From the NCBI GenBank assembly GCA_054600435.1, contig BAAIJX010000002.1, positions 929,912 to 949,911 of the forward strand: a stretch of 20,000 bases of DNA. The letters run 5' to 3'. The translations under genes were made by a program, and so were the position numbers. The notes under the pieces were generated by a model. That model saw nothing but the letters and a program-made list of their open reading frames with translations, did no database searches and was not told the DNA's origin. The DNA is from Neophaeotheca triangularis. Its lineage: Eukaryota. This document shows positions 2,975 to 19,860 of this stretch, one piece after another (position 1 is the stretch's first letter; each line of letters starts with the position of its first letter).

Positions 2975-5659
2975 ATGGACGCACACGATACTACCACGCG
3001 CCAAGCACCACCAACTCCCAACCAAGCCATGGACCACGCCGAAGAGATGCTCGCAGATGTCGACGAGCCGCCGGATGATCGAGGGTACTTTACTTGGGGT
3101 CATACAAGGATACACCGTTATGAGTCGCATTCTGCGGCATATGCGAAGAGTCAACTCCCTCCGTATGCGCGTCGGGAATCGCTTCTGACGAGACAGCTGC
3201 ATTCGGAGAACGAACACACCGAAGATGAAGCGCATGTCAGACCACCGAGAGGGTTGAGCACTGTATCGACTTGGAGTAATCCCAGCACGACTTCGACGGC
3301 AGAACTCACTAGTGATGATGGGAAGAGTGTTGCCAGCCCTGCTATCAGTCCACCTCCTTCCGTTACACATTTCAGGAATATGCTCGATTCGCACAACAAT
3401 CCGATTACCGAAGAGCCGGCCGTGGTTGAGGGGCAAGACGACGCACCGATGAATGTCAAGGTTGAAGAGAAGAAACCAGAACAGAGTGTGGAAGCGGGAC
3501 TGGGCCGGAAGAGATGCATTACCTTTGCTTGTGGCGGGAAGAAAGAGGCCAAGGTCGTTACACCTCCAGTCGTGGAGGAGACGCCGGAAGAGAAGCCCAC
3601 GAGTCCGCCAAAGAGAAAGTGCGCGATCAAGTTTGTCTGTCCTACACGGGCTGGGGCTGAGAATAACGCAACTTTGGACAAAGCACAGCCACAACTTAGG
3701 AGACCAGCAAGCCCGGCTCCGACTTGCAAAAAGCGGTCTTCATCGAAAACACATCGAGGATCCGACAGCACCGTCACTCATGCCTCACCGAAGAATATTC
3801 GCAAGTCTTCACAACCTCCTAATACCGACGTGACTAGCGCTCCTAGGAAGCTTTCGAATGACTCGGATGACAGCGGGCCGGAAGCTACTAGGTTTCATGA
3901 ATTTGGGACTAGCGAAGAGGAGCCTGAAGAATGGGTTCAAGAGGCGACTTGCCATCGGAGCAGGCTTACCATTACTGATACTCTGAGAAAGGAGAACGCC
4001 ATTAGAAAATTGGCTGAAGAGGATGAGGAGGAGGAGGCTCTACTCGAGGAGGATCTAGACGAAGGCTTAGATCTGGACGACGACAATGACGACGATGATG
4101 ACGAGGACGCCGATGACCAAGATGGGGAAGAAGATACCATTGATGTCGCTCAAGATGATGCAGAGGAAGAAGACTCGGACTCTGACGATGGCTTCAAATC
4201 CGACGATGAAGGAGGCTTCGCCGAGTCCGACTCCTCAGGCGATGAGAGCGATTTTGAATGGTGGCGGCCTGGTGGTGCTCCCTCGACGGCCGCGACCTCT
4301 CACGAGAACATGAACGAACACTTGATCACGCCTAAATTAAAAGCGGACAGGATGATGTCGGAATCCTCGGTCGGCAGCGCCAGTTCCGCCCATCTCTCCC
4401 CCAGATCCTCACGACAGAAATTCCACGGTCGTCCCAGAAAGCGCACCGTCACAGCCGCCGTGCCAATCGTCCGTCCAGAATTGCCAGACTTACCCGACAG
4501 CACTGACTTCGTCTGCGGAACTCTGGACGAAGACAAACCCTTGGAAGTGGCGTATGTATCTTGCAAAAAGGAGCGGGAAGCGGCAAAGCATTCTGCACGT
4601 CCTCAAGACATCGATCCGACTTTCCCAACCTCGGATCCGGAAATGGACGAAGAAGACGACGAGGATATCGAGGACCCGGAAGAGAGCGAGTCGGATGCCG
4701 AAAAGCAAGCGATGGTGCATGGGTCCATGGAAGAGCTGGACGAGCCTTCGCCGCCTCAGACTATGGTTCGTCGCCCTTCGCCGCATCATGCTAAGCGCTC
4801 GAATCAGCGCTCTCCACCGCCTCCTCAGACTTCTCGTCATCGCTCTCCACCGCCTCCTCAAACTTCTCGTCACCGCTCTCCACCACCTCCTCAAACTTCT
4901 CGTCACCGCTCGCCTCCACCGCCAACCCGCCACCGCTCACCCCCTCCACCAAACAAGCGTCGCTCAATCGCGCACTCTCCTCCACCCCCAACAACAACAA
5001 ACACAACCCGCCAAAAAGCCCTCGCGCACTCACCTCCACCTCAACCCCGCAAACTCTTCGCACGAGACCAATCCAGTCCGCCACCCAACTCCCGCCGCCA
5101 AACTTCCCCAATAAACGCACCTCAACACCGCCTAACCTCTCCCCCAAACACTCGCCGCGCGTCCCCAACCTCAACAAACACAGCCATGGTCGGACTCGCC
5201 GGCCGGCCGCAACTAACCCACACGGCCTCCCTGCCACGAGGCGGACTTTCAACACTATTGCGACAACACCACCTCCGTCAAACCGGCGGCCACCACCACC
5301 ACTCGCATCACACCAGCGCCAACTCGTCGGATGCACCGAAGCGCGGCGCCATCGATATCGTCAAAGGTCTCGAAAACAAGCGTCAACGCCGGAAAGAGAA
5401 GTTGTACCAGAAGCATTGCGCCAAAGCTGCGGAAAGGGGAGGTAGACATCATCATCATCATCATGGTGGCGGTGGCGGACAAGCTGCGGGGGCTGAAGGG
5501 GTCGCCGCTGGTGGAGGTGGGGGTCGGGGGTATAGAGTCAAGCCCGGCAAAGGAGCGGAGAGGATGAGGGAGATTGGCTGGCGGTTGGGCGGGTATCATG
5601 GCAATCTCGGTGGTGGTGTTCAGGGTGGGGGCAAGGGGGGGCATATCTTGTCGGTGTAG
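2975..5659 (+). CDS. Conserved fungal DUF2457-like protein (acidic tract, Ser-Pro repeats; often annotated 'extensin-like'), 894 aa, single exon
   Basis: Long ORF with good start context (aaaccATGG). Blocks recalled from DUF2457 proteins: ESLLTRQL, RFHEF, RLTITDTLRKENAIRKL, PDLPDSTDFVCGTLDEDKPLE, PQDIDPTFPTSDPE, AIDIVKGLE..RQRRKEK, PGKGAERMRE. The CDS is secure; the family name is from recall. Confidence 0.85.
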   Translation: MDAHDTTTRQAPPTPNQAMDHAEEMLADVDEPPDDRGYFTWGHTRIHRYESHSAAYAKSQLPPYARRESLLTRQLHSENEHTEDEAHVRPPRGLSTVSTWSNPSTTSTAELTSDDGKSVASPAISPPPSVTHFRNMLDSHNNPITEEPAVVEGQDDAPMNVKVEEKKPEQSVEAGLGRKRCITFACGGKKEAKVVTPPVVEETPEEKPTSPPKRKCAIKFVCPTRAGAENNATLDKAQPQLRRPASPAPTCKKRSSSKTHRGSDSTVTHASPKNIRKSSQPPNTDVTSAPRKLSNDSDDSGPEATRFHEFGTSEEEPEEWVQEATCHRSRLTITDTLRKENAIRKLAEEDEEEEALLEEDLDEGLDLDDDNDDDDDEDADDQDGEEDTIDVAQDDAEEEDSDSDDGFKSDDEGGFAESDSSGDESDFEWWRPGGAPSTAATSHENMNEHLITPKLKADRMMSESSVGSASSAHLSPRSSRQKFHGRPRKRTVTAAVPIVRPELPDLPDSTDFVCGTLDEDKPLEVAYVSCKKEREAAKHSARPQDIDPTFPTSDPEMDEEDDEDIEDPEESESDAEKQAMVHGSMEELDEPSPPQTMVRRPSPHHAKRSNQRSPPPPQTSRHRSPPPPQTSRHRSPPPPQTSRHRSPPPPTRHRSPPPPNKRRSIAHSPPPPTTTNTTRQKALAHSPPPQPRKLFARDQSSPPPNSRRQTSPINAPQHRLTSPPNTRRASPTSTNTAMVGLAGRPQLTHTASLPRGGLSTLLRQHHLRQTGGHHHHSHHTSANSSDAPKRGAIDIVKGLENKRQRRKEKLYQKHCAKAAERGGRHHHHHHGGGGGQAAGAEGVAAGGGGGRGYRVKPGKGAERMREIGWRLGGYHGNLGGGVQGGGKGGHILSV
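4808..4951 (+). repeat. Coding tandem repeat: 33-bp unit (RSPPPPQTSRH) x3 plus two degenerate copies
   Basis: cgctctccaccgcctcctcagacttctcgtcat and near-identical copies start at 4808, 4841 and 4874; shorter variants start at 4907 and 4934. Confidence 0.95.
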
Positions 5660-6046: not shown

Positions 6047-6537
6047 AGTGGTCTTTTGAGGCAGGAGCGGGCAACAGGCATTTCTTTTGGCGAAACATGA
6101 CGGCGAGGGAGGGGGGGGGGGCTCCTTTTTTTTTATTTAGGGGGGATGTGGTACATGTGTATATACTGTCGTTATTGCCTTTTTCCGTCGCTGTTCTCAT
6201 CATCTTATGATAGGGGAGAGAGAGGGAGTTGGTCGAGTCGATTGCTATACTAGTAGGAAGATGGAATTGGAATTGGATCGGGTTGACTAGTAAAGTGGTT
6301 TAAAGACTGTGTAGCTTGAATGGGGGGTTGGATTGCATGATAGTGGGAGGTAGTGGGAGGTAGTAGGAGGTACCTAGTGTAGGTATGTATATGCTTGGTT
6401 TAGTTGCAAGGGGCTCCTAGAAGCGATTTTGCTTATTGCTATTACTGGTTTACTGGTTCTATTGATGAATGGTGTTAACAGTGGTCTTTTGTTGGTTGTA
6501 GGGTTGTTTACTGTACTTGGGTGGTACTGATAAAGTG

Positions 6538-6571
6538 GGTGGTGGTAGTAGTAGCGGTGGTAGTAGTAGTG

Positions 6572-6626
<55 letters not shown>

Positions 6627-6640
6627 CGGTGGTAGTAGTG

Positions 6641-6697
<57 letters not shown>

Positions 6698-6719
6698 ATG
6701 GTAATGGTAATAATAGTAG
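6538..6719. repeat. Long compound (TAG)n microsatellite with TGG/CGG/TAA interruptions, about 180 bp
   Basis: Visible directly; it generates the poly-V/S/Y/T pseudo-ORFs. Confidence 0.97.
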
Positions 6720-7124
6720 AGAAAGGCCGCGGTATAATCACGGTGAAAGTGACTGGTGACGTCCATTCATGCTGCTCTACTGTTCCGATATCGGTGTCGC
6801 CTTTCAGAGCTCTACCCCGTCACATGTACCTCCAGCCGGAAGAGGAAAGTGAGAAAGACACTGGAGGATGATACACATACCTCACATACCTTCCTCTTCC
6901 GGTTGTAATTATCATCTTTACCTTGTGTGTGTTGGTTTTGTTTCGATGGAACACGACGACATGACTTGATGCTGATATGCCACTTTGACTTGTACTAGGC
7001 TTGAGAGGGAAGTTGTTGACCTACCTCTCTCTACCTTACTTCAACCTTTTCTACCTTCACTTGCTTATTCAATTCCATCTTCTTCATCTCTTCCTCTTCT
7101 ACTTTCCCTTCCCCAAAATCCACC

Positions 7125-9180
7125 ATGACCACCCCCATCACCCAACACTCCCCCCTTCTCTCCCTCCCCGCTGAACTCCTCCACCACATCCTAACTTACC
7201 TCCCTGCCCGAGCCCTCTCAACCCTCGCCCTGACCAGCCTCGACCTCGCCCACGCCACTCACGACGACCGCCTCTGGGCTCTCCAAACCCGCCTAATCTC
7301 CGCCACACCAATCTCAACCCCGCATCCCCTCCCCACCTTCCGCGACCTCTACCTCGCCCACCACCCCCACTGGTTCCTCGTCCGCAACTACGTCTGGTTC
7401 TCCGACGCCGAGCCTTATGGGAAATTAATCGTCTGTGGTTATGACGAGAGAAGACAGTGTATCGAGGCTTATGCTGTTACTGCTACCAAGGGCCCGTTGA
7501 GCTGGAGTCAGTGGGAAAGGGATCGGAATGTCGTCGTTCACGGCTTTGATCCCGAAGTGAGGGTTGAGAAGAGCGCGCCGGTTTTGAGGGTTGGGCTTGA
7601 TAGTGAGAGGAGGGCGGGGGATGGTGGCACTAGGTATGGGGAGGAGGTTTTGATGCAGACTTTCGCGGAACCGGGCGTGCATAGTTCGTTGCAGCTTTGT
7701 CGGGGGTTGCCGGAGAGGGCTGTGGCACGGGGGGCGGCGGTTTGGCCGCCGCTGACTTTTCCCGCGGCTAGTAGGACGCGGAACGAGAGTAGTTGTCACT
7801 TTCGCTCCGAGGCGCATCGACCCAGGGGGGACAAGGAGTTGTCACAGGAGACTTTTCGACTGAGGAAGTGGGCGAGTTATGCGGGGCGGCACGGGGCGGC
7901 CGGCATGTTGCCTTTGCAGGCTCGGAATGGGGATGGAATCGAGGATGAAAACACCAACGAGACTCTACGCCGCTACATACAACTACTATCCGCTGGGGGC
8001 GTTCCTGCTCCTAGCCACGGCAGGCTCGGACGCGGTGCCGGTGGTGCGGGTATCAGCTTGCAAATCCCGGAGAGTGTTTCGACTTTTGCTACGCTGCCGA
8101 GGGACATCTGGACCCCGACAGCGGAGAAGCCGTGGCAAGGGGTTTGGGTTGGGGATTACAGCGCCCATGGCTGTGAGTTCCTGGCCGTAGTGCAAGATCT
8201 ACCTGGCGAAGAACGAGTGCCTTTACCCAAAGGGTTGCAGTGGTTAGCTGCCTATTTCCGCGGCGAGGGTAGGGAGGGGACATTCGAGGCAGAAGTCAAC
8301 GGAAATGGCGACGTTAGTGATGACGAGGATGACGAGGAAGACGAAGGCAGCGAGAGCAGCTGGGCTAGTGCTCTTGAGCACAATCACTCCAGCTCCTCGT
8401 CCCCGACCGGCAACGCTCAAGCTGGAAGCAGCAGCACGGCCAGCACTACTACCCACTGGGCTGGCCCGGCTATCGGCCACATTGCCGATTTAATACGTCA
8501 AGCCGCTTACAACGGGCCTGAACCGGAATCCTCGACTGTTACTGCTATGGCGGACACCGACGACGACGACGACGATAGCGAGGACTATGAAGACTATGAG
8601 CTCGTGGGCCACGACGATGGAACGGAGCCGGCTGCCGCGATCCAAGCACCACTCCCGACTACCGACCACAATCCTCCCACTACCACTACCTCGCTTCCCG
8701 ACTCTTCAAGCACCGCAGACGCCAGCGCCGGCCCCATCAGTACCCAAGACCAAGCCCGCGAGCCTAAAGGTAGGCTCTCGGCTGTCAAATTAACAGGCGA
8801 CCCTAACATTCCTCGCGGCGAATATACTTTTATTGCCCCCGATATAGGCGAGGGAGGTTTCGAGAGGATCGCCGACGAAGAGCTGTTCAAAGGCGCCAGA
8901 GTCGTCAGGAGTTGTGGACACATCGCCGGGAGGGGGTTCAGGGATGGTGAGTTTGTTCTTTTACTTACTTTATGTCCTGGCAGGTTTGTTTCCTTGCTTA
9001 CGGCTCGGTCTACCTGTATCCAATGCTTTCTTCTGCTGACACTTTCATGTCCGGACATCAGATCAATACACCCCTTCCCAGCTCATTATGGTTTCTCACG
9101 ACCGGCTCGCGCAGTTTTGGGAGGGGTTTGGCCATATTAGTTTTTACCAGAAGGTTGATTTGGAGGCGTTGTTGGGGTGA
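7125..9180 (+). CDS. F-box protein, FBXO31/Pof7-like (N-terminal F-box, C-terminal DUF3506/Cyclin_D1_bind-type domain); exons 7125-8946 and 9062-9180, 646 aa
   Basis: F-box LLSLPAELLHHILTYLP; family motifs KPWQGVWVGDYSAHGCEFL and KLTGDPNIPRGEYTF. The intron has a GTGAGT donor (8947), GCTGAC branch (9035-9040) and CAG acceptor (9061). Splicing yields DQYTPSQLIMVSHDRLAQFWEGFGHISFYQKVDLEALLG*, the expected C-terminus for this family. Confidence 0.9.
8947..9061 (+). other. Spliceosomal intron (115 nt, phase 1) of the F-box gene
   Basis: Canonical GTGAGT...GCTGAC...CAG; removing it restores the reading frame to a conserved tail. Confidence 0.9.
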
Positions 9181-10243
9181 TTTGAGAGGTCTGAGGCATC
9201 AATGTGAAAGGGACTGGGATTGTTTGGGGGCCTATGGGCATTCTTACGCCTTGCCTCGAGGGGGTGCCAGGGGTCTTGTTACGGAGGCGTTAGGGGTGCT
9301 GTCGAGGTGGAATGCATGGCTGCTGGGGTTTCGGGCGCCTTGGGGCACGCGCGGGTGGGTCGGAATGGGTTTTTGGGGCTATAAAACGGCCTTCTGGGTT
9401 GAGGTTAGAGATGAGATACGAATACTGGTGGGGTTAGTAAAGGGTGGGTAAGTAAGCAAGTACAGTCTCCACCTTCCGTCTAGGTATCGTATCGTCTAGC
9501 CACGACCGTCGGGTACTGCGGACGAGGCGATCGTCGACGAGGGTCTGGATTGGATTCACTGGTTTGAGCTCTAACCTGACCTTGTTACTTCTCATCGACT
9601 GCAGACGACGAGCATAATTATCCAGGCGACGATGTCGCTGGAACTGGACTCGCTCACTTTTACTCCTTTCTCGACTGGAGGTGTTAGCGCAGACTTACTC
9701 CCATTCCACGACTCCCCCCGACACAACCCCAGCACTAACCATGGCCCCTCTGAAAGCATCAAAACTCCCCCATACCCCTCCTCAGCAACCTTCACCCCTA
9801 TCATCCCCGCCTCCTCTCCCTCCTAAACTCCGCCGCAATGGCAAGGCGCTGAGGGCATACGTGCGGAGCATAAGGAGGTGACAAAGTCTGAACCCCTATT
9901 AGTGTTGTTTGTAATCGCGATGTGGGTGTGCTGACAACGAGTTTGGGTCGAAATTTGAAGAAGTTGGCTGAAAAGACGGAGACGAGCGTTTGGAGAGAGG
10001 TCGAGGGGAGTTTTTGTTAGTGAAGGCGGTCAGAAAGAGGGGCGGAGAAGTAAGTTGTATACCAAGAGGGGGAATCTTTCCTGAGAGTAGATTTGGTCAG
10101 GCCGTAACGCTCGTCTGTACATTATGTACATATCTGGCCGCCGCTCGAAATGACTCTCCAGCAAGACAACCGTCAATATTCCCACATCCCGGCTTCAAAT
10201 CAATCCTCTTCCCTTCTCCTTCCCACCCCTATCCTATCTTCCT

Positions 10244-10549
10244 CTACGAACTCCCCACAACAGCCCCCCCGAGGAAAACCGGCTCCTTGTCGCTAAAATT
10301 CTTCACATCCCCCATAACCTCCGCCGTAGCCTCACTCTGCACCGCCTTTTGCATGTCCTCGACGCTCGCCCACTCGAGAGAAGCTTGCACGCAGTAAGCC
10401 TGGTCGTCGCCGAACTTGAGAACGCGCCAGCTCTTCAGGCCGTGCGGGCCCCATTTGGACATGACGAGCGGCATGTGCGTGGACAGGTAGTAGTCCATGT
10501 TGAAGGTGGCGCCTTGGGGGTAGATGACGGTGGAGGAGGCGGTGGGCAT
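10244..10549 (-). CDS. EthD-family (dimeric alpha/beta barrel) small protein, 101 aa
   Basis: TVIYPQGATFNMDYYLSTHMPLV..KWGPHGLKSW and VMGDVKNFSDKEP match the fungal EthD pattern. Start context ccaacATG follows a C/A-rich leader. Confidence 0.9.
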   Translation of the reverse strand: MPTASSTVIYPQGATFNMDYYLSTHMPLVMSKWGPHGLKSWRVLKFGDDQAYCVQASLEWASVEDMQKAVQSEATAEVMGDVKNFSDKEPVFLGGAVVGSS

Positions 10550-11795
10550 GTTGGCTGGCGGTTTTGTTGGAGTGGGTGTTGAGACCTCAAGGGGGGGGAA
10601 GATGTTAGATGGAGAGGGTAGCTTGAGGGTGAGTGGAATAGTGTCTTACTGTTGGGTTTCTGTTTGTTTCTCTTAATCAATCGGCGCTTTTGCTTTTTCG
10701 TTAAGGATGGATGTTTGTAGAGGTAGGGTAGGTGTTCTCGTGAATATATGTCCGCTCCCCTATCCTACCTTACCCCACCTCTGACACAGCTACAGCCCAC
10801 CCTCGGTGATAGATACCTTACAACCGAGACAACCCCGCCGTCAGGCATATGTTCAGCTTTATGCACCTCGTCGAGATACCGCTATTGCTGTATAATAATG
10901 ACCCCGCCGACTCTACCTACCGTACCTAGGTACTAACTGTTTTGCACGCAAGGCGAGATAAAAATGATTGATTTAACGAAGAGCTAACTACTTGCTATCT
11001 AGATTAGTAGAGATATATGTGTACAGATATGCCTTAGGCATAAGTTGCCTCTATTACAAGTCCTCCTAACTTAGTTGTAACATTCTAGGCTCTAATAGGT
11101 AAGCATATGTATAGATAGAGGACTCCCCTAACCTTTCTTAATAGAAGGAACCCTCCGCATCCTATACCTTAAGATAGTTACCTACTTCTTGTCTAGTCTG
11201 AAAGCGGATATGAACCTGGGTTTGCTACAGTACGGATATCGTTCGAGGAAATGAATGGCATGATTAGGGCATGGAGTATTGGCGAGGGAAGTATTGAAGA
11301 GGGCCTTGAGGAAGGTGCCCCAGCGTACTGAAAATGATTATTCACACTGAATAATAAGGTAGTCATATATATAGAAGAATCGCGGGATTGGGGTAGAGAC
11401 TTACGCACGGCTCCATCCTCCCGGAATGAGAACGCTAAGTCAGTCGCGAGCGGTAGGAATACGTAAGAAAGTTGTCCTCTTTCTTTCAAGAGGAACCTTA
11501 GACCAAGGATGAGCTCTACATAGGAAGTATCGCTAGCTACATATACAGGAGATTCGTGTGTCTCGACTGTCTCGCCTTCGAGATAGTCGATTGCTGCTCA
11601 CCGTCTCAAGTTGTCGACCTTAGTCGACCTTCGTCGATGCGAGTCGGGCGAGACAGGGCACGGCAGAAGGACTTCGGCCGAACTGTGGTTAGGATGCAGC
11701 TCGACAAATTTCTGTTGAGACGCTGCGTTCGTTGACTTAGCACATAGCACTTCCTTACCAACTAATGAAACCCTGCGTCCGGAGATCCAGTAACA

Positions 11796-12728
11796 TCATA
11801 CCCCTCGCTCAGTCGCTATCTGCGCAAGACGCTTTGCTATAAACAGGTCTTGAAGCGAGATGCCGGAGCTATCGAACATAGTGACCTGCTCTTTGCTCTC
11901 TCTCCCAGGCTGGGTACCCTGAAGGACGTTGCCAATGGCACACATCTCAGCAGAAGCTGGAGCGTGCTGAAACTCTCCAATGGCTCGGGACTGCGATGGC
12001 AGATCGCAAAACAGCTGCGCACGCGCGAACAGGGCCGCTGGGATTTCCTGCTTTCCTTTCGAGTCCGCCCCCATGCAGGATACGTGCGTACCAGGTTTGA
12101 TCCAGTCGGCTTCAAAAAGTGGTGCCCGAGCTGGAGTTGCAGTTACGACGACATGGGCGTCTAAGCAGGCTTGTTTTGCGTCTGAAGCAACAGTGGCAGA
12201 AATATTATAGCTCTCCAACTTGGCCACCATTTCCTGACCCTTGGTTGAGTTGCGGGCCACGATTTCCACCTTCCTAATGGGCAAGACACGCGATAAAGCG
12301 ACGCATTCAAACAGCGCTTGGTGTCCTGCTCCGAAGACGACCAGATTTGAGGCGTCAGGGCGGGCAAGCACGGAGGCAGCAATAGCATCAGCAGCTGCGG
12401 TACGGTAGGCATTCACCTCTCCGGCTTCGATGACGGTCGAGATTTTCCCATTCGCCTGGTTGATTAAGAGAATGGTAGAGTTGTGATTAGGGTCGCCCCG
12501 GGAAATATTGTCTGGCCAGTACGAGCCAACTTTGAGGCCAGAGACAGTCGAAGTCGTTCCAGATTTGACAGTGAAGACGTTAGCCGGCTGAGCAGCGTGC
12601 GCAATAACGGCCGGAAATACGGTGGACGTTTCATCAACCGCAGCGGCGATGAAAGCTTCTTTGACCGCATCAAACGCGATGCTGTGACTAATGAGAAGCC
12701 GTGACTCTTCCTCTGAAATGTATTTCAT
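11796..12728 (-). CDS. Ornithine cyclodeaminase/mu-crystallin family NAD(P)-dependent enzyme (imine/ketimine reductase-like), 310 aa, intronless, bacterial-like
   Basis: GLKVGSYWPDN...HNSTILL, NAYRTAAADA, Rossmann motif VFGAGHQA, VVVTATPA, PGTHVSCMGADSKGKQE, FDSSGISLQD. Start context atcaacATG. Confidence 0.93.
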   Translation of the reverse strand: MKYISEEESRLLISHSIAFDAVKEAFIAAAVDETSTVFPAVIAHAAQPANVFTVKSGTTSTVSGLKVGSYWPDNISRGDPNHNSTILLINQANGKISTVIEAGEVNAYRTAAADAIAASVLARPDASNLVVFGAGHQALFECVALSRVLPIRKVEIVARNSTKGQEMVAKLESYNISATVASDAKQACLDAHVVVTATPARAPLFEADWIKPGTHVSCMGADSKGKQEIPAALFARAQLFCDLPSQSRAIGEFQHAPASAEMCAIGNVLQGTQPGRESKEQVTMFDSSGISLQDLFIAKRLAQIATERGV

Positions 12729-13263
12729 GTTGATGGTGTATCGTAGACAGATGGAGGAATGTACGTTAAGATATGTAAGTTAGATGAATGAGGTCGGGTA
12801 CCCTTGACCCGACGCGTGCAAAACTTTTTCGCCCGACTATGTAGCTAAGGACCGGGGTGGGGTAATCTCATCGTCCGATGGGGTCTTCGCTATATAAGAA
12901 CGGGGATATTATTGTATACTACTGTACGAAGTCGTAGCAAAAGTTGGGTCTACACCTATCGATAACTACTTGGACTATATGCTGCTTAGGACGACGTTGG
13001 AAATAGCGCTATCCAAGCTATGAAGGAACTACTGACTGCTACATTATCTAGGAAGTCCCCTTGACTTGATCTGAATACTCATCCAGCGGTGGGCTTTCTG
13101 AGGGGACCAGGGAAGACCTTGGCTGGTAGGGCGACTCATTGAATGAGATTTCATCGTGCTGCTAGAGCATATGCTGAGAGAGGGTTTTCCAACAGACTCA
13201 ACTCGGTGTAAATAAAAGACTGATGAAGAACTATACCAGACAGCGGGATGAGAGAACTGGATG

Positions 13264-14260
13264 TCAACGTCGCGATATGCAACAGGACAGCAGCCTAGAC
13301 GTCGTGTAACGGTACGACGCTCCCTGAAAAATCATCACTCGCCACAATGCCTCCCTATTGCCTACCCGAGGAATGACCACAAAAAGAAAGACAAACTCTC
13401 GCACATGAACGCACGCTATCAACTCAAACCGTACCAACGACAAACGATCCACTGTCGGATCGCCGGCGGGCAAATAGCCAGACTTCTTTTCGAGTTCGGA
13501 GTTGACAGCTCCCTTCGAAAGAACAATTCTATATTCCGGGACCTTGGGCTCTGTCCACTTGCGCCAGTGCTGCAATGTCCACGGCGAAGGCAGCTCATTG
13601 ACTATCACTCGATCGACCCGTTCCTCCTTCACTGCCTTATACCGCATTCAAGAAGAACAGGAACTTATGATTGTGGATAAGCGGACGGTGCGAAAGTGAG
13701 GGAAGACAGAATTCTTCATTAGCGGCAGGACGTGGTCTTGGAAGAAGTGCAGCTGGTCTCGGATCTCTGTGTCTTCGTGGCACAGCTGCTGTACGTTGCT
13801 ACAGCTGACCACGAGGAGCGCAATCTCGGCGGCTGATGAGCCTTGTCGTAGCCGGTCTACGAGAAACTGCCGCCTTCCGATTTCGAGATCGAGGCGTCGT
13901 ACCTGAGCATTCATGCGAAAGACGAAGAGCGAATCGTCATAGTGCAGTTTCGTCCAGGCCACATCTAGAGCTGGCGTTAAAAGGAAGATCTTTTCGATGT
14001 TGTAGAAAAGGTGCGGTTTATCCGTCAATGACCTGAGGAGCAAACTGAGTCGCCCGCGTCTCGAGCGGACGCCGACAGTGCGATACAATATAGTTTGCGA
14101 CATGCGGTCGAACGATCGGCTCGCGGCGGAAACCGATCGAAGAGTTGCGGAGTATGAGTCGGCTTGTGGGTCTATTCGAGGTGTTGGACTGGGCATGAGT
14201 CTTGAGATACTCAAATATTTCTAGTCAAAGCTCTTCCGGCAGTAGTCCCGGTAACCGCAC
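13264..14260 (-). pseudogene. Decayed fungal F-box domain gene (two in-frame stops and one frameshift)
   Basis: The minus strand reads LPGLLPEEL*LEIFEYL (TGA at 14227-14225). A 1-nt frame change leads to ATLRSVSAASRSFDRMSQTILYRTV...LLLRSLTDKPHL (ORF 13648-14214). After TGA at 13650-13648 the same frame continues as ORF 13264-13647. Confidence 0.6.
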
Positions 14261-14445
14261 GTTCTCGACCGGCCACGATTACGAGGTTTGGATTGCAGGG
14301 GCAGGGTCGACGGCTAAAGAAGGAACGAAGAGTGGGGGTAGATTCTGAGAATTCAGAGCGCTTGTATGGAAACCTCCTACGTGGGCGCGAAGGTCGGGTC
14401 TGATTCACTTTGCCGAACGTCAAGCTTTTGCACGTAACAAGACAG

Positions 14446-14772
14446 TTAAGGCTTGATTGATAGTAAATTTATCGGACAAACCAACTTCGCAGGTGACTGG
14501 CCGTAGATGCTTGGCGCGTGGAAAAGAAACGGCTGCACCAGTTTGTTGAAGGTTTTGCTGACCCTCGAGCAGGTCAAAATGTTACGCAATTTGAGGCGAT
14601 CCGAGAGAAGAGTTACTTCCGCCATCTCTCGAGGCGCCTTAAGTGATAGGTGAGATGAGATGTTCGCCAGGACGCCTTCCGGAAGCCTAACGAAGCTGTT
14701 GTCGTGGCTATCGGAGGTCGCCATTCCCGGGCAAGATCTGGATGGCGGAGGGATCGAAGTCGGTCCATACAT
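14446..14772 (-). pseudogene. Truncated F-box-like ORF (gene remnant or first exon)
   Basis: SFVRLPEGVLANISSHL...LRNILTCSRVSKTFNKLVQPFLFHAP is a typical fungal F-box plus the following helix. ATG candidates are at 14772 and 14724. The ORF stops soon after the domain. Confidence 0.55.
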
Positions 14773-15421
14773 GGTTGGGACGGCGATCTTGATTATGTAC
14801 TCTGCGGTCGACCGTGTCGTCAGGAGAGCGACCGACGCTGGTCGGGTACGTGTTTTTCGCCGAGCTGAAGTCTGAAGACTCAACGGTAGTAAGCAGCGGC
14901 CGACGTTCAAGTAGGGTAGAAGAAAGTAGGGGTGAAGGCTGGGAAGAGGGAATGTTTACTTGCGCGCTTGATTGAGGGACACGTCCCCAGAAGGGAAAAC
15001 GCGGTGTGAATTTTATGATCATTGTAGGCCGCAAGATCCGAGATCAGGTGCGCCGGTGGAGAAAAGGAAGCAAGAAGAAAGAGCAAGTGGAGCCGCTGTG
15101 TTGGAGATAAAGGCACTGTACGATGCATCAGATCAGGACCAATCCCCTGGTATAGTAGATTGTAGAAACTTTGTACCTCTAGCTGCGCAGGTGTTTAAGA
15201 GACGGGGGGTGGAGTGTTACAGTCGGTTGCCGAGATCGCCTATCTAGGACATCTTTCCGACTGTACCCCAAACGCTAACCCTACCTTATAGTACAGAACG
15301 TACACACGGGAAAAGAAATCACCTCAGGAAGCGTCAAATTCAAGAGTCCCGTTCTCTAAATCACCAAGACAGTCACGTCTACCTGCCACTAGCCTAGCCA
15401 GGTGCGCTCCCCTCTGTCCAA

Positions 15422-16843
15422 TCACTCCTCCCTCCTCACCCATCCCCCGACCCCCAAAATTCCCCCATCCTCCGCCGCAGGATCCATACTCCACTTCTTC
15501 ACCGGCGCAACTTCCCACCCAGATTTCCACCCAGCATTCCACATTTCCACGCCGGCCCAAGCAATCATCAAAGCGTTATCGGTACACAACTCCACAGGTG
15601 GGAAAGCCAACTCCACTTTCTCAAAACCCCGTACGTCCAGCATCGCGCGCAGGACATGGCGTAAATAGCGCGAAGAAGCCACGCCGCCGGAGACGACGAC
15701 GGTCTGCGTGGGAGTAGTGGAAGTGGCGAGGTGCAGCAGAATGCGCGAGGCGAGGTGCTCGTAGGCTACGCGCTGGACTTCGCGCGCCATGGTCTGGCGT
15801 TCTTCGAGAGTGATTGTTTCCGGGGAACGGGGTTCTTTACTTGGAGTGCCGGTAGGGGTTAGGCGGAATCTCATGAAGCGCTCAATGCTTGTGAGTAGGC
15901 CTGCGAAGGAGTAGGCCATGCGTTTGGAGGTTTTGGCGCCGCCTTTGCTGTCGGCGAGGGGTGGACCGAGAGACCAGCCCCAGGGTGTTGGGTGGCGGGT
16001 TAGTTCTTCTTGTCGCCGGGCCGGGGGCGTGTAGTGGTAGTCTGCCGAGCCGTTGGGGAAGGCAAAGTTTTCTAGGGCTTTGCCGTAGGGTGGCTGGAGA
16101 TCTGAGATGGGGAGGATCGCTCGTGCAGCTTTGTCTATGCAATCGCCTATGGCTATGTCTTGAGTTGAGGCTAGAATGGCGTGTTCGGTGAGGCCGGTCG
16201 AGTTGATTAGTAGAGTGTGACCTCCGCTCGCTAGGACTGTGAGAAAGGGGAATTCTGGCTTGAGAGAGCTCGGGTTCCAGTGGTCGGATTGCTCTGACGA
16301 TATCCTTTGCGGTTTAGAGTCAGGCTCTCGGGAAATGACATGACAAAGCCGTGGAGTCAGTGCATGAGCCTGCATGTGATGAACACCTAGTAAGGGCACT
16401 CCCCATGCCAAAGCTAGCCCTTTGGCTGTATCGAGGCCTACAGCCAGATTACTTCTCATGCCTGGGCCTCTGGTTACCGTGACAAAGTCCGGTTTGAACA
16501 CTTCTCCAATGGATGAAGCATGGCTGGCACTCTGTTTCAGTGCTTTTTGTACCAAACCAGCCAGATTCGTCTGATGCGACTCCAGAGCAATCAGGGGGTG
16601 GATGCCATTGTAAGCTTCGCTTTTGGCGGTGATTTTATCATGGAACAGAACTTGTCCTCGGATGTCTTTGCTGCGATTTCCAGATACCCTCAATACGGCT
16701 ACGGAGGTATCATCACACGAGGTTTCAATGGCCAGAGTTTGCTGGTGCCATGCGCGGGTATGTATCAGTGGCGAAAGCCGGCCAATTTGGGGGCTACATG
16801 GTCGTAAGGTTAGCGCTGCTGGCATGCGCAGCGCCGAACGCAT
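15422..16843 (-). CDS. QRI7: Mitochondrial tRNA N6-adenosine threonylcarbamoyltransferase (Kae1/TsaD/Qri7 family)
   Basis: TLAIETSCDDT, VTRGPGM, metal-binding HHMQAH, LASGGHT, DIAIGDCIDK, SFAGL, VVSGGVAS, CTDNALMIAW. The Arg-rich, acid-free N-terminus from M43 (16843) resembles a mitochondrial presequence. The true start may be 16843 or 16825; the ORF-track ATG at 16969 is less likely. Confidence 0.93.
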   Translation of the reverse strand: MRSALRMPAALTLRPCSPQIGRLSPLIHTRAWHQQTLAIETSCDDTSVAVLRVSGNRSKDIRGQVLFHDKITAKSEAYNGIHPLIALESHQTNLAGLVQKALKQSASHASSIGEVFKPDFVTVTRGPGMRSNLAVGLDTAKGLALAWGVPLLGVHHMQAHALTPRLCHVISREPDSKPQRISSEQSDHWNPSSLKPEFPFLTVLASGGHTLLINSTGLTEHAILASTQDIAIGDCIDKAARAILPISDLQPPYGKALENFAFPNGSADYHYTPPARRQEELTRHPTPWGWSLGPPLADSKGGAKTSKRMAYSFAGLLTSIERFMRFRLTPTGTPSKEPRSPETITLEERQTMAREVQRVAYEHLASRILLHLATSTTPTQTVVVSGGVASSRYLRHVLRAMLDVRGFEKVELAFPPVELCTDNALMIAWAGVEMWNAGWKSGWEVAPVKKWSMDPAAEDGGILGVGGWVRREE

Positions 16844-17207
16844 CAAGCATATAGGAAGCCTGAAATCCAAGGTAAGTCGTGGAAAGATTAAGGGTGTGGT
16901 ATTACTTAGGTAGTATGTATTATTGCTGAGGGTCGGTTGGATGGATTGTACCTGCAGGAAGTCGGGCATCCGAAGATGACGCGCGCGTGCGCTTCTTTTG
17001 GGCCCCCACGTTGACCCAAGACCACATGCAACTGGGCATGTACCTTAATGTAGGTACTAGTACTGTAGATATATCTTTGTAACATCCTGCTACCAACACC
17101 ACACTTTCTTACCTCCCTACTGCTCTCCACAATCTATGGACAGTCTTTCTGTCGACTGCGGTACTTGGCGACGATAAAGTACCCGGAAGCGTGCAAGGAC
17201 AGCCAAT
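16844..17207. promoter_or_regulatory. Probable bidirectional promoter between QRI7 and the patatin-like gene
   Basis: Head-to-head genes about 364 bp apart. Contains the palindromes ACGCGCGCGT (16979-16988) and GTACTAGTAC (17055-17064) and a pyrimidine-rich tract near 17100-17130. Confidence 0.55.
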
Positions 17208-19790
17208 ATGGCCGACATCAAAAAGACCACCGACGGCCCTAGCACCGACTCCCCTGAGGCCTGGGACTACCGCACTCTCCCTGACTGGGACGAGGACTTT
17301 GTCAACGAGGACGACTTTCGTACCTTTGCCTCAGCTCTCAGCGCGCCCGACATCTCTCCATCCGAGGAAGACCTACTCAACCCCAAGAGGCAGAGTCCGG
17401 AGTTCATCACAGCCCTCAACGACTGGCGACCCATCCACCAGAATGTCAGAGGCAAGCGGAAAGGGGAAGTTGCAGCCAAGGGCAAGAAAGGGAAGAAGCC
17501 GCGTAGGGGGAAAGACGAGACTCGCGAGGGTTGGTCGTACAGCTTGTTCCGATACCCCATACTGGTGTTCGTGTTAGGGTGTGTTATTGTCGAAGGCGCG
17601 ATATACCTCTTGGTGCGCATGTACATTTACTTGTACGAGCATTACATCACATGGCGGGGGCGGAGGAATCGATTGCGCAAGAATTTGAGCACGCAGACCA
17701 GCTATCAAGATTGGGTCGAGGGAGCGAAAGAGTTGGATCAGCATTTGGGCAACGATCGGTGGAAGGACGAGGATGAATACGCCTATTACAACGACAAGAC
17801 CGTCAGGAAGGCAAGAGATCAAATGAGGCAGCTCCGGAAAGCTGCTGAGAAGGAAGAGGCGAGCAACGACAGTCCATTTGCGCAGAGAGCCATCGACGAC
17901 TTGCGATCTTTGGCGGAAGCTTGCGCGAAAAACAACTTCGCGGGCTACGAAAACCCGAGATTATACTCAGAGACTTACTATGGGACCAAGGAGTTGGTGC
18001 AGTCGTTTGTTGACGAGGTGGCAACCACTCTGCGCTTTCTCCTTGCCAGCAAGCAACTCAACCAGCAGGACAAGCGAAACCTTTCCAAACACGTTAGCAA
18101 TAACTTCGGTCGATCAGCACTCTGTCTCAGCGGTGGGGCTACTTTCGCATACTACCATTTCGGTACTGCCAAAGCTTTACTCGACGCTGACCTACTCCCT
18201 TCAATCATCACCGGAACGTCTGGTGGTGCTTTGGTGGCAGCGCTTCTGGCAACGCGAACAAACGAGGAGTTAAAACGTCTTCTGATCCCCGCGCTGACAT
18301 ATCGAATTAAAGCGTGCCAAGACTCTTTCTTCACTTGGGCACCGCGCTGGTGGCGGACAGGCGCTCGCTTTGATAGTGTTGAGTGGGCGAAGAAGTGCGC
18401 TTGGTTCTCACATGGAAGTCTCACCTTCCTCGAAGCTTACCAGCGCACCGGTAAGATCCTGAACGTCAGCTGTGTACCCTCTGACCCACACAGTCCGACA
18501 ATTTTGGCAAACTACCGCACCGCCCCTGACTGCGTTATCTGGTCCGCAGTACTTGCATCCGCAGCGGTGCCTGGCATCCTCAATCCTGTGACTTTGATGC
18601 GCAAAAACCGCAATGGTCAACTCGAGCCATACTCTTTCGGCCACAAGTGGAAGGACGGTAGCCTGCGTACTGACATTCCCCTCAAAAGCCTCAACACCCA
18701 CTTCAACGTCAACTTCAGCATTGTCTCCCAAGTCAACCCGCACGTCAACCTCTTCTTTTTCAGCTCCCGCGGCTCCGTCGGACGACCAGTCACCCACCGC
18801 CGTGGCCGAGGCTGGCGAGGCGGCTACCTCGGCAGCGCCCTAGAACAATTCCTCAAACTCGATCTCAACAAGTGGCTCAAAGTGCTCCGCCATCTCGAGC
18901 TCCTCCCCCGCTGGCTCGGCCAAGACTGGTCGCAAATCTGGCTCCAAGGCTTCAGCGGCAGCATTACCCTCTGGCCCAAAACCCAGATCTCAGACTTCTA
19001 CTACATCCTCTCCGACCCCACTCCGCCGCGTCTCGCCCGCATGTTACATATGGGCCAACTAGCCGCCTGGCCCAAACTCAAATTCATCGCAAACCGCATG
19101 GCGATCGAAAAAGTCATCGAAAATGCTCGCGAAGCCACTCGGCCACCCGAGCAACCCTTCCCCACTCCCGGCGGCCTCCCTCGCGACTCCCGACTCCACG
19201 GCAGCAGCAAATTCAGCGAAGAAGACCTCCACGCCTTGCTTGAAAAAGCCCGCCACAACGGTGGCAGCGTCGCTCTCGCCAATGACGCTCTCACTCCCAC
19301 TGCCGAGACCACTCCTGCCAGACTTCCTCCGTCTTCTTCCCTCCCAACTAGCGGCCGCGCTTCCCCATCTCTCCCAAAACGCAGCTGGAGCAATTGGTTT
19401 CCCAGCCGCTCTTCAAGCCCTACCGCTACTTTCGACAACTTACGCCCTTCTCTCATGGAAAGACGTTCCAATGGCAGCGGGGCCAGTGGCGGTGGCGGGG
19501 GTGGGCGCGGACTTCTGGAAGCTCACCGCCGTGGCTCGGCCATGGATGAGTTGAAACGACAGAGTTTAGTCTTCTGGGATGATGAGCCGGTTCAGGAGGG
19601 TGAAGAGGCAGAGGGGAGTGAGGTTGGGGATACAGGGACGGAAGGGGAGGGTGATGGGGAGCGGGAGAAGGATGGAGAGAAGGATGTTGCGCCCTATGAT
19701 TCTGAGTCTGAGTCCGAGGACGGGGCGGAGTCTGTCACTTCTGCTAATAGTGGGGTGGAGATTCGAGGGAAAAGGGGAAAAGGCGAGTAG
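17208..19790 (+). CDS. Patatin-like phospholipase / TGL3-4-5-related lipase (DUF3336 plus patatin domain), 860 aa, single exon
   Basis: N-terminal TM helix YPILVFVLGCVIVEGAIYLLV; oxyanion LCLSGGATFAYYH; nucleophile GTSGG; ASAAVPG; catalytic KWKDGSLRTDIP; SIVSQVNPH; disordered acidic C-terminal tail. Confidence 0.95.
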   Translation: MADIKKTTDGPSTDSPEAWDYRTLPDWDEDFVNEDDFRTFASALSAPDISPSEEDLLNPKRQSPEFITALNDWRPIHQNVRGKRKGEVAAKGKKGKKPRRGKDETREGWSYSLFRYPILVFVLGCVIVEGAIYLLVRMYIYLYEHYITWRGRRNRLRKNLSTQTSYQDWVEGAKELDQHLGNDRWKDEDEYAYYNDKTVRKARDQMRQLRKAAEKEEASNDSPFAQRAIDDLRSLAEACAKNNFAGYENPRLYSETYYGTKELVQSFVDEVATTLRFLLASKQLNQQDKRNLSKHVSNNFGRSALCLSGGATFAYYHFGTAKALLDADLLPSIITGTSGGALVAALLATRTNEELKRLLIPALTYRIKACQDSFFTWAPRWWRTGARFDSVEWAKKCAWFSHGSLTFLEAYQRTGKILNVSCVPSDPHSPTILANYRTAPDCVIWSAVLASAAVPGILNPVTLMRKNRNGQLEPYSFGHKWKDGSLRTDIPLKSLNTHFNVNFSIVSQVNPHVNLFFFSSRGSVGRPVTHRRGRGWRGGYLGSALEQFLKLDLNKWLKVLRHLELLPRWLGQDWSQIWLQGFSGSITLWPKTQISDFYYILSDPTPPRLARMLHMGQLAAWPKLKFIANRMAIEKVIENAREATRPPEQPFPTPGGLPRDSRLHGSSKFSEEDLHALLEKARHNGGSVALANDALTPTAETTPARLPPSSSLPTSGRASPSLPKRSWSNWFPSRSSSPTATFDNLRPSLMERRSNGSGASGGGGGGRGLLEAHRRGSAMDELKRQSLVFWDDEPVQEGEEAEGSEVGDTGTEGEGDGEREKDGEKDVAPYDSESESEDGAESVTSANSGVEIRGKRGKGE

Positions 19791-19860
19791 GGAAGGATGA
19801 AAGCGTGCGGCGAAAGGGTCTCGGTTGGTATGGAGAAACAGCACGAGGTCTCGAGAAGAA

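Follow-up and report, generated by a model that had tools for sequence, protein, structure and literature searches.

An intact bacterial-type gene among fungal genes raises the questions of where it came from, how it has been kept and what its product does. The gene considered here encodes P0001, a 310-residue protein of the ornithine cyclodeaminase (OCD)/mu-crystallin family, and lies at 11796..12728 on the minus strand of a 20,000-nucleotide stretch (the window) of Neophaeotheca triangularis, contig BAAIJX010000002.1. It is intronless, and its product is a predicted imine reductase of bacterial ancestry. Our reading, to which we give a probability of roughly 60%, is that a bacterial OCD subfamily entered the Dothideomycetidae in one old transfer and that its members would use NAD(P)H to reduce a dehydratase-made imine to an L-amino acid.

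Transfer of OCD-family genes into fungi is already catalogued and is ordinary by itself; the part of interest is a rebuilt pairing with a dehydratase. Among the rows listed in supplement 3 of PMC11708051, at least 13 OCD-family rows in at least 5 events have bacterial or archaeal ornithine cyclodeaminase-family best hits. Cladosporium, Rachicladosporium and Aureobasidium assemblies were part of the survey, but none of these 13 listed rows belongs to them, and the hosts looked up for 6 of the 13 belong to other groups. The same source gives a median of 19 acquired genes in Dothideomycete genomes, 56% intronless. Frequent transfer of D-amino-acid racemases into fungi is described in PMC5169069, in which a term search found no mention of the OCD family. 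Our literature search, which mostly lacks subscription papers, found no report of this clade or of this pairing.

The gene and its subfamily

The frame runs for 310 codons without a stop, and Met1 of P0001 aligns with Met1 of bacterial proteins over 97-100% of the length. This end-to-end alignment from the first Met indicates that the gene has no intron and the protein no targeting extension, in agreement with the initial annotation of this DNA. The OCD/mu-crystallin model PF02423 matches residues 19-300 with 196.6 bits (cut-off 24), and family membership is borne out by both the Pfam score and the fold and core residues, as the Rossmann GAGHQ motif and the K66, R109 and D294 core are present. 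An AlphaFold2 model from a 28-row alignment has a pLDDT (predicted local distance difference test) of 91.8 and template-modelling (TM) scores of 0.89-0.92 over 1OMO, 6RQA and 1X7D, with 0.91-0.92 to 1OMO (archaeal alanine dehydrogenase) and 6RQA (BhcD). All five elements of the motif signature named in the initial annotation were found: GLKVGSYWPDN (residue 64), NHNSTILL (81), GAGHQ (133), MGADSKGKQE (219) and SRAIGEFQHA (247). The start codon stands in a CAAC-ATG context in which no Shine-Dalgarno-like run was seen, and TATATA at 12891-12896 on the minus strand, ~165 bp upstream of it, is a possible TATA box.

None of 16 NCBIfam models is passed by P0001. Identity with BhcD was rejected, as P0001 scores 233.4 bits on NF045643 against a cut-off of 500 and a true BhcD control scores 585. 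Also rejected were ornithine/lysine cyclodeaminase (NF005762, 142.8 against 350; NF006141, 193.2 against 408; 25-26% to 1X7D/1U7H), reductases of 1-pyrroline-2-carboxylate (Pyr2C) and 1-piperideine-2-carboxylate (Pip2C) (NF004793, 162.8 against 322; NF005603, 99.1 against 266; NF045512, 61 against 400), and archaeal alanine dehydrogenase, EutC and SbnB (TIGR02371, 170.5 against 409; TIGR02992, 162.5 against 472; TIGR03944, 86.8 against 327). As judged from profiles and alignments, P0001 is in an uncharacterised sister subfamily of BhcD and not, as initially annotated, in a clade that includes BhcD. Of the two activities first suggested, a cyclodeaminase is unlikely, and imine reductase can now be tied to a dehydratase partner.

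BhcD of Paracoccus denitrificans (6RQA) is the best solved relative of P0001 (156 bits, TM 0.92). The two have in common GLKxGxYWPxN, H82/H83, K55/K54 and GD..GKQE, and BhcD acts behind a pyridoxal phosphate (PLP) hydroxyaspartate dehydratase. They differ in that P0001 is only 38% identical, with a long branch between them, and in that Arg159 of P0001 is not in BhcD. No bhcABCD context was found: it is absent from the window, and across 75 loci, the 70 bacterial ones included, neither bhcA nor bhcR was matched. Of the BhcD active-site set, which we take to be V39, R41, G52, K54 and H83 with R41 as substrate binder, P0001 keeps two of five positions (K55, H82), with A40, I42 and T53 at the others.

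In Rossmann folds, an Arg after the second strand with no acidic residue before it goes with a preference for NADPH. Because Arg159 stands at the end of the second Rossmann strand of P0001, with no acidic residue before it, the sequence suggests NADPH as the cofactor; this column holds Arg in 168 of 169 bacterial-side rows and in 16 of 17 fungal rows.

Bacterial origin and distribution among fungi

The homologue search scored 8000 candidates, and the best 120 of 1799 hits were examined. They fall into two tiers, with 16 other clusters at 66-71% identity, followed by proteins at 47-62%. The named members of the first tier come from Aureobasidium namibiae and Cladosporium inversicolor (~70%); two of the 16 clusters are singletons, and the members of the remaining 14 are listed. 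Fungal neighbours, either intron-bearing genes or fungal families, lie beside the gene on three of five first-tier metagenome contigs, the other two being too short or unclassified. The named second-tier proteins are bacterial, from Methylobacterium, Azospirillum, Novosphingobium, Agrobacterium, Bosea, Arthrobacter and Saccharothrix.

For the trees, 189 rows were reduced to 101 by removing near-copies at 80%. FastTree placed all 17 first-tier rows in one clade (support 99) deep among bacteria. IQ-TREE on 48 of the 101 rows grouped all 11 fungal rows at 100/99, inside bacterial clades at 99/91, with Methylobacterium and Bosea as sister to the fungal clade at 90/90. The trees were rooted on BhcD or an archaeal row, and native fungal OCD rows, including 8H8P, were not in them. 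The latter, from Candida parapsilosis, has the same fold, and CpIM1 of this yeast is described as an NADPH imine reductase giving L-amino acids (PMC8446579), but the 371-residue 8H8P chain matches P0001 with 22.6 bits and 19% identity, compared with 379-393 bits for bacterial relatives, which points to a separate origin. A scan of named prokaryote genomes with a single protein returned just two distant loci, and an ESM Atlas search started from the Aureobasidium homologue gave nothing but bacterial OCD clusters and is uninformative on transfer.

Compared with four loci, the P0001 gene shows a nonsynonymous difference (pN) of 0.19 and a synonymous difference (pS) of 0.75-0.83; rows of locus L014 were left out of the comparison of substitution rates (dN/dS), as an early stop leaves nine codons. 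The synonymous sites are saturated, so the acquisition is old. The bacterium-to-fungus transfer first proposed from the window is thus upheld by the trees, by linkage to host genes (given below) and by the distance of the native yeast homologue, and the gene lies outside any broad fungal clade. It is not peculiar to this genome: the trees support one old acquisition from bacteria, common to A. namibiae, C. inversicolor and 14 further clusters. The clade, described at first as proteobacterial, also contains Actinobacteria.

The donor group is the bacterial OCD subfamily with dehydratase partners, for which we found no curated model, structure or paper. Its members are 47-62% identical to P0001, which retains 61 of 63 positions conserved in the 169 bacterial-side rows, including K55, K66, H82, R109 and D294. 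The fungal copies differ by the loss of the bacterial partner and by residue 81, which adjoins the invariant His82 and is Asn in all 17 fungal rows and Arg in 131 of 169 bacterial-side rows; this fixed Asn81 may mark a substrate shift after transfer.

Base composition was rejected as a mark of foreign origin. The gene has a GC of 0.54 and a GC at third codon positions (GC3) of 0.558, and six other open reading frames (ORFs) measured in the window range over 0.535-0.61 and 0.54-0.82; GC3 in six bacterial relatives is 0.62-0.93. The low strand skew remarked on in the initial annotation is real locally, with a mean absolute 200-bp GC skew of 0.078 in the gene against 0.22-0.24 in all five host ORFs measured, but fails as a foreign mark because GC and GC3 are host-like.

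The fungal distribution is narrow (17 clusters and two named species among the hits examined) and patchy, as only Cladosporium, of 24 named genera of these orders in a patatin search, has a named clade member. In our reading, the gene has since been moved and has often been lost among Dothideomycetidae. No synteny with the P0001 locus was found in five of five loci with other fungal copies, and locus L013, closer to P0001, has a Gig2-like neighbour in place of the dehydratase Dsd1 described below; the Gig2-like gene of the host is on contig C74. The nearest matches of the host patatin are those of Teratosphaeriaceae (79% for Oleoguttula, 78% for Meristemomyces and 76% for Hortaea). In a 36-row patatin tree, a one-gene placement, the host falls in Teratosphaeriaceae (92) within a group supported at 100 that includes Cladosporium and excludes Dothideales. 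Three host proteins (17208-19790, 2975-5659 and 10244-10549) are singletons in 90% clusters, and the best patatin match is 79%, which marks the host as a sparsely sampled lineage close to Teratosphaeriaceae.

A serious possibility, to which we give somewhat less than even odds, is that the host acquired the gene indirectly, in a 4-kb block passed on by another fungus, and not by descent from the first recipient with many losses. In the 48-row tree, the gene joins A. namibiae and P0003 (98/90), against the placement of the host with Teratosphaeriaceae and Cladosporium; the single genus among 24, an insertion site that is empty in sample X3 and in one haplotype of sample X2, and the lack of any flank in common with the five fungal-clade loci point the same way. 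However, the approximately unbiased test does not reject a grouping of the window gene with Cladosporium (p 0.073), the base of the fungal clade is not resolved in an 18-row tree, synonymous sites are saturated in all four scorable comparisons, so that no close donor has been sampled, and broken Cladosporium copies show that loss is common.

Dehydratase partners and the predicted reaction

The proposal of an imine reductase coupled to a dehydratase draws on gene neighbourhoods. In bacteria, 51 of 70 metagenome loci have a PLP-dehydratase match within 300 bp of the gene. When near-copies are merged, this is the case in 39 of 55 locus groups (28 DSD1-like and 11 fold type II), on the same strand in 38 of the 39, and a dehydratase stands anywhere in the locus in 44 of 55; for relatives at 50% identity or more, the counts are 18/25 within 300 bp and 21/25 in the locus. 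Among nine plasmid loci read out of 20 plasmid records at 47-58%, seven have a DSD1-like gene, one has a threo-3-hydroxy-L-aspartate ammonia-lyase that passes its NCBIfam threshold (455.7, cut-off 452), and one has neither partner type but ends 677 bp upstream. These loci also carry RidA and a dicarboxylate symporter (3/9), GNAT (4/9) and aldehyde dehydrogenase (5/9) genes. Two of the seven DSD1-like partners were compared with the PDB and are best matched by the Delftia D-threo-3-hydroxyaspartate dehydratase (358 and 379 bits), with 194 and 212 bits for chicken D-serine dehydratase and 77 for BhcC; none of the five, out of seven, that were scored on the BhcC model passes it.

The module also appears in other settings. 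In the near-identical locus pair L037/L038, the gene follows BhcB- and BhcC-like genes (75% and 79%) and a shortened DSD1-like remnant; L038 2975-7398 reads, in order, RidA, a BhcB-like gene, a BhcC-like gene, a DSD1-like ORF with an internal shortening and, at the usual place of bhcD, the subfamily reductase. On the IncN plasmid pN3 (L007 3583-7756), a symporter-RidA-OCD-LysR-DSD1 block adjoins IS26, and near-identical blocks are found on an Erwinia plasmid and a metagenome contig (L008, L030), showing that the module is mobile in bacteria. In L010 7931-12912 and L009 7729-10115 it lies near genes for a four-carbon acid sugar kinase, PdxA, threonine aldolase, threonine dehydrogenase, homoserine kinase and threonine synthase, a context that hints that some bacteria use it on 4-hydroxythreonine or threonine-type substrates.

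The pairing recurs in Cladosporium with a different dehydratase. In both L014 and L017, the reductase is succeeded on the same strand by a Dsd1-type gene (PF14031), and a convergent Zn2Cys6 gene comes next, its six cysteines divided by a GT-AG intron; the clustered Dsd1 has a GT-AG intron of its own. In C. inversicolor, reductase and Dsd1 (the pair KAM0704782.1 and KAM0704781.1) have the adjacent locus tags Q7P35_007567 and Q7P35_007568; the reductase is annotated there at a short 274 aa. Indirect evidence comes from 12 further reductase/Dsd1 member pairs whose contigs are of exactly equal length, so that they are apparently co-located (two of them being L014 and L017), touching 7 of the 12 reductase clusters of the subclade; 9 of 11 Dsd1 clusters were looked up for this. 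The clustered Dsd1 (11 clusters, 79-100%) has Sordariomycete and other fungal Dsd1 as its closest named kin (49-55%). Transfer of a whole bacterial operon to Cladosporium was rejected, since the partner is only 25-29% identical to the bacterial ones and nests among fungal Dsd1. In the Dsd1 tree, the host Dsd1 joins the outgroup, a placement that was flagged as long-branch. The clustered Cladosporium Dsd1 (L014 9435-10879; P0287-P0298) is closer to other fungal Dsd1 than to the host Dsd1, and its sequence may be that of a paralogue or of a gene itself acquired from another fungus.

A pairing formed twice, in bacteria and again in fungi, argues for a shared reaction. In the reaction that we propose, the dehydratase would dehydrate a D- or beta-hydroxy amino acid, releasing an enamine or imine, which the P0001 subfamily would reduce with NAD(P)H, probably NADPH, to an L-amino acid. 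This reduction would take place before the imine is hydrolysed to keto acid and ammonia, as with BhcD behind BhcB, and capture of the imine would both keep the nitrogen and remove a reactive intermediate. In the present host, the partner would be an unlinked Dsd1 on contig C27; an SRY1-type hydroxyaspartate lyase was not found in the host with the query used, the best matches being ~35% and under the cut-off. PLP dehydratases are known to release enamine/imine intermediates that RidA hydrolyses (PMC3565831), and BhcB and BhcD together with BhcC convert glyoxylate and glycine to aspartate, for which BhcD is required (bioRxiv 2022.08.08.503134); the substrates of Dsd1p provide a precedent for the chemistry (PMC8071972). 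A related scheme was proposed for hydroxyectoine catabolism, in which a PLP dehydratase (EutB) and an OCD-type reductase (EutC) would remove a hydroxyl group; its source states that this dehydrate-then-reduce scheme is not biochemically tested (PMC5924519). P0001 differs from EutC in its score (162 bits on TIGR02992, cut-off 472), and no eut context was seen.

As to the substrate, imines from D-Ser, D-Thr and similar Dsd1 substrates are a tentative choice, compounds of other kinds have as good a claim, and iminosuccinate or its amide is a little more doubtful. A wider proposal, which we regard as speculative, is that a PLP beta-hydroxy-amino-acid dehydratase and an OCD-fold imine reductase form a widespread but unrecognised module that would turn D-serine, D-threonine or hydroxyaspartate-type compounds into L-amino acids without loss of nitrogen. 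The reductase would have reached black fungi a single time and then passed from order to order on small accessory islands, and Cladosporium would have restored the logic of the bacterial operon by recruiting a non-orthologous, intron-bearing fungal Dsd1 and a Zn2Cys6 regulator.

The same bacterial origin would also fit a general ketimine reductase in this host, acting on Pyr2C/Pip2C or on imines from D-amino-acid oxidase, in place of a missing native mu-crystallin-like gene and with no link to Dsd1. We consider this rather unlikely. P0001 is the sole OCD-family match in the host genome (PF02423 and NF004848, E up to 1), although an exon-by-exon search may miss a split native gene. The host has no linked dehydratase, members of the family are promiscuous imine reductases (PMC11876095, PMC8446579), and flavin adenine dinucleotide (FAD) oxidoreductases stand beside the gene in three of nine plasmid loci. 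On the other hand, P0001 reaches only 61-163 bits on the Pyr2C/Pip2C models, far below their cut-offs, and coupling to a dehydratase is recurrent in bacteria and occurs again in Cladosporium.

The island, the state of the gene and its significance

P0001 is carried by a ~4-kb presence/absence island at 11194..15227, between an EthD-domain gene (10244..10549, minus strand) on the left and a TsaD/QRI7-type gene (15422..16969, minus strand; PF00814, the name QRI7 being that of the initial annotation) on the right. In run X1, from which the assembly itself may derive, 6722-19855 is covered by a single contig of 13,213 bp with 0 differences and a flat depth of 125. A second sample, X2, carries 11367-12796 with 56 differing letters and 6 gap letters, and the linkage to host genes rests on this diverged allele and the X1 contig, both obtained without long reads. 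In the empty haplotype of X2, a contig joins 11193 to 15228 with 101 other letters between (depth 62); the island contig of the filled haplotype has a depth of 61, and the flanks are near 120. In sample X3, labelled as a different organism, loose ends lie at 11195 and 15228, and the site is empty, its letters having no match in the window. We looked for a terminal repeat or target duplication bounding the 4-kb island and found none. The filled X2 haplotype also skips 10865-11367, 13125-13906 and 14329-14570, the alleles being 1-7% apart, and X2 may be a diploid, heterokaryotic or mixed sample. The metatranscriptome run X4 has no contig on the gene; it covers only 9 of 30 bins at low depth and barely contains this organism, so that it carries no weight on expression. 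The X1 contigs break at a long TAC/TAT-type microsatellite (6374-6766), which yields a poly-Tyr ORF when its minus strand is translated.

Immediately after the stop codon of P0001 lies a solo long terminal repeat (LTR) of an LTR retroelement family, 428 bp on the plus strand (11368..11795). Its 3' 280 bp are 72-80% identical to paired LTRs that stand 6.6 kb apart on several contigs of the host genome, and its 5' 146 bp have no match to that family above shuffles; its 5' boundary was set by the target-site duplication and by length (LTRs of the family measure 419-444 bp). The left copy of this duplication, TCATA at 11363..11367 (plus strand), is the single occurrence in the 60 bp where the start is expected, with a chance of ~0.09. 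The right copy (11796..11800, plus strand) includes the TGA stop codon of P0001, so that the protein is not shortened even though its 3' flank is displaced. Truncation by the LTR was rejected on this ground, and relatives end at 306-316 aa.

The initial annotation described the surroundings as decayed DNA, which is partly right. Besides the solo LTR, there is a fragment of a second dispersed repeat (10937..11071, 73-77% to three other places), a 108-aa F-box-like ORF in the island (14446..14772, minus strand; PF00646, 25.2 bits) that is partly skipped in the X2 island haplotype, and two ORF pieces of 182 and 127 aa with no Pfam family (13264..14196, minus strand); the 182-aa piece is single-copy in the host genome, and 13125-13906 is absent from the X2 island haplotype. 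Elsewhere in the host genome, full-length LTR elements of ~7.1 kb occur at C8:485617-492709, C32:13795-20888 and C4:816847-823988, with LTR pairs 97-98% alike, a TpA/ApT ratio of 1.3-1.5 that resembles repeat-induced point mutation (RIP), and stop-free stretches of at most 172 aa. Near-identical LTR spacing is repeated on C18, C21, C22, C19, C67 and C2.

It is improbable, in our view, that P0001 is now a mere passenger in the host, intact through recent relaxation and silent or dispensable. The LTR displacing the 3' flank, the polymorphic island and its fragmentary neighbours would fit this, but the frame is full, the conserved positions are nearly all kept, the branch is short (0.18-0.20), and the ORF has no RIP-like signature (TpA/ApT 0.62), in contrast to the three LTR elements, none of which has a stop-free stretch beyond 172 aa. 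The early remark that the gene is possibly under selection stands for the clade over the long term (pN 0.19, pS saturated) and is doubtful for the present, with the island absent from one X2 haplotype and several relatives broken.

Several observations weigh against our proposal of a single old transfer and a dehydratase-coupled reductase. The sister position of Methylobacterium and Bosea drops to 82/60 in the 18-row tree. Column R41 of BhcD (the substrate arginine) is Ile in P0001 and is Arg in only 3 of 169 bacterial-side rows and in none of 17 fungal rows; H44, residue 81 and S69 are candidates for taking over its role. In the window, no dehydratase gene adjoins the reductase gene, the Dsd1 of the host, on a different contig, shares only 38-43% identity with the clustered type, and one query found no Cladosporium-type Zn2Cys6 regulator in the host. 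In bacteria, a partner is missing from 11 of 55 locus groups; the majority of these are short on one side, although three or more have 4.5-8 kb of upstream flank. In Bosea, part of the closest bacterial sister group, FAD oxidoreductase and aldehyde dehydrogenase genes lie between the reductase and dehydratase genes, an order in which an oxidase could supply the imine. Dispensability is indicated by the X2 haplotype that lacks the island, by a TGA at codon 10 of the L014 gene (8001-8030) where relatives have Arg, by the early ends of P0015 and P0017 and a 6-residue gap in P0014, and by a dN/dS of 0.62 for the closest pair, L016/L017, against 0.16 for deeper pairs. For three members of the L014 cluster, gene callers start the protein downstream (304 aa).

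Bacterial contamination or a chimeric assembly, suggested by an intronless gene 54-62% identical to bacterial proteins in a window at the end of contig C2, was rejected as extremely improbable, given the single flat-depth contig that ties the gene to host genes, the diverged X2 allele, the host LTR inserted at the stop codon, a GC3 of 0.56 compared with 0.62-0.93 in bacterial relatives, and closer relatives in other fungal genomes.

Annotated as 'ornithine cyclodeaminase' in databases, the subfamily is large and uncharacterised, and its coupling to dehydratases gives it a function that can be tested; the rebuilt pairing is an example of fungal clusters forming around foreign genes. Presence versus absence of this island in the host offers a natural plus/minus system for its phenotype. 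On the wider, speculative proposal, eukaryotes would gain a way to relieve enamine/imine stress by reduction in place of RidA-type hydrolysis. If our main reading is true, the subfamily would provide a new imine reductase for biocatalysis, and the BhcB/BhcD principle would extend to the salvage of D-amino acids and hydroxy-amino acids in surface-dwelling, stress-tolerant fungi.

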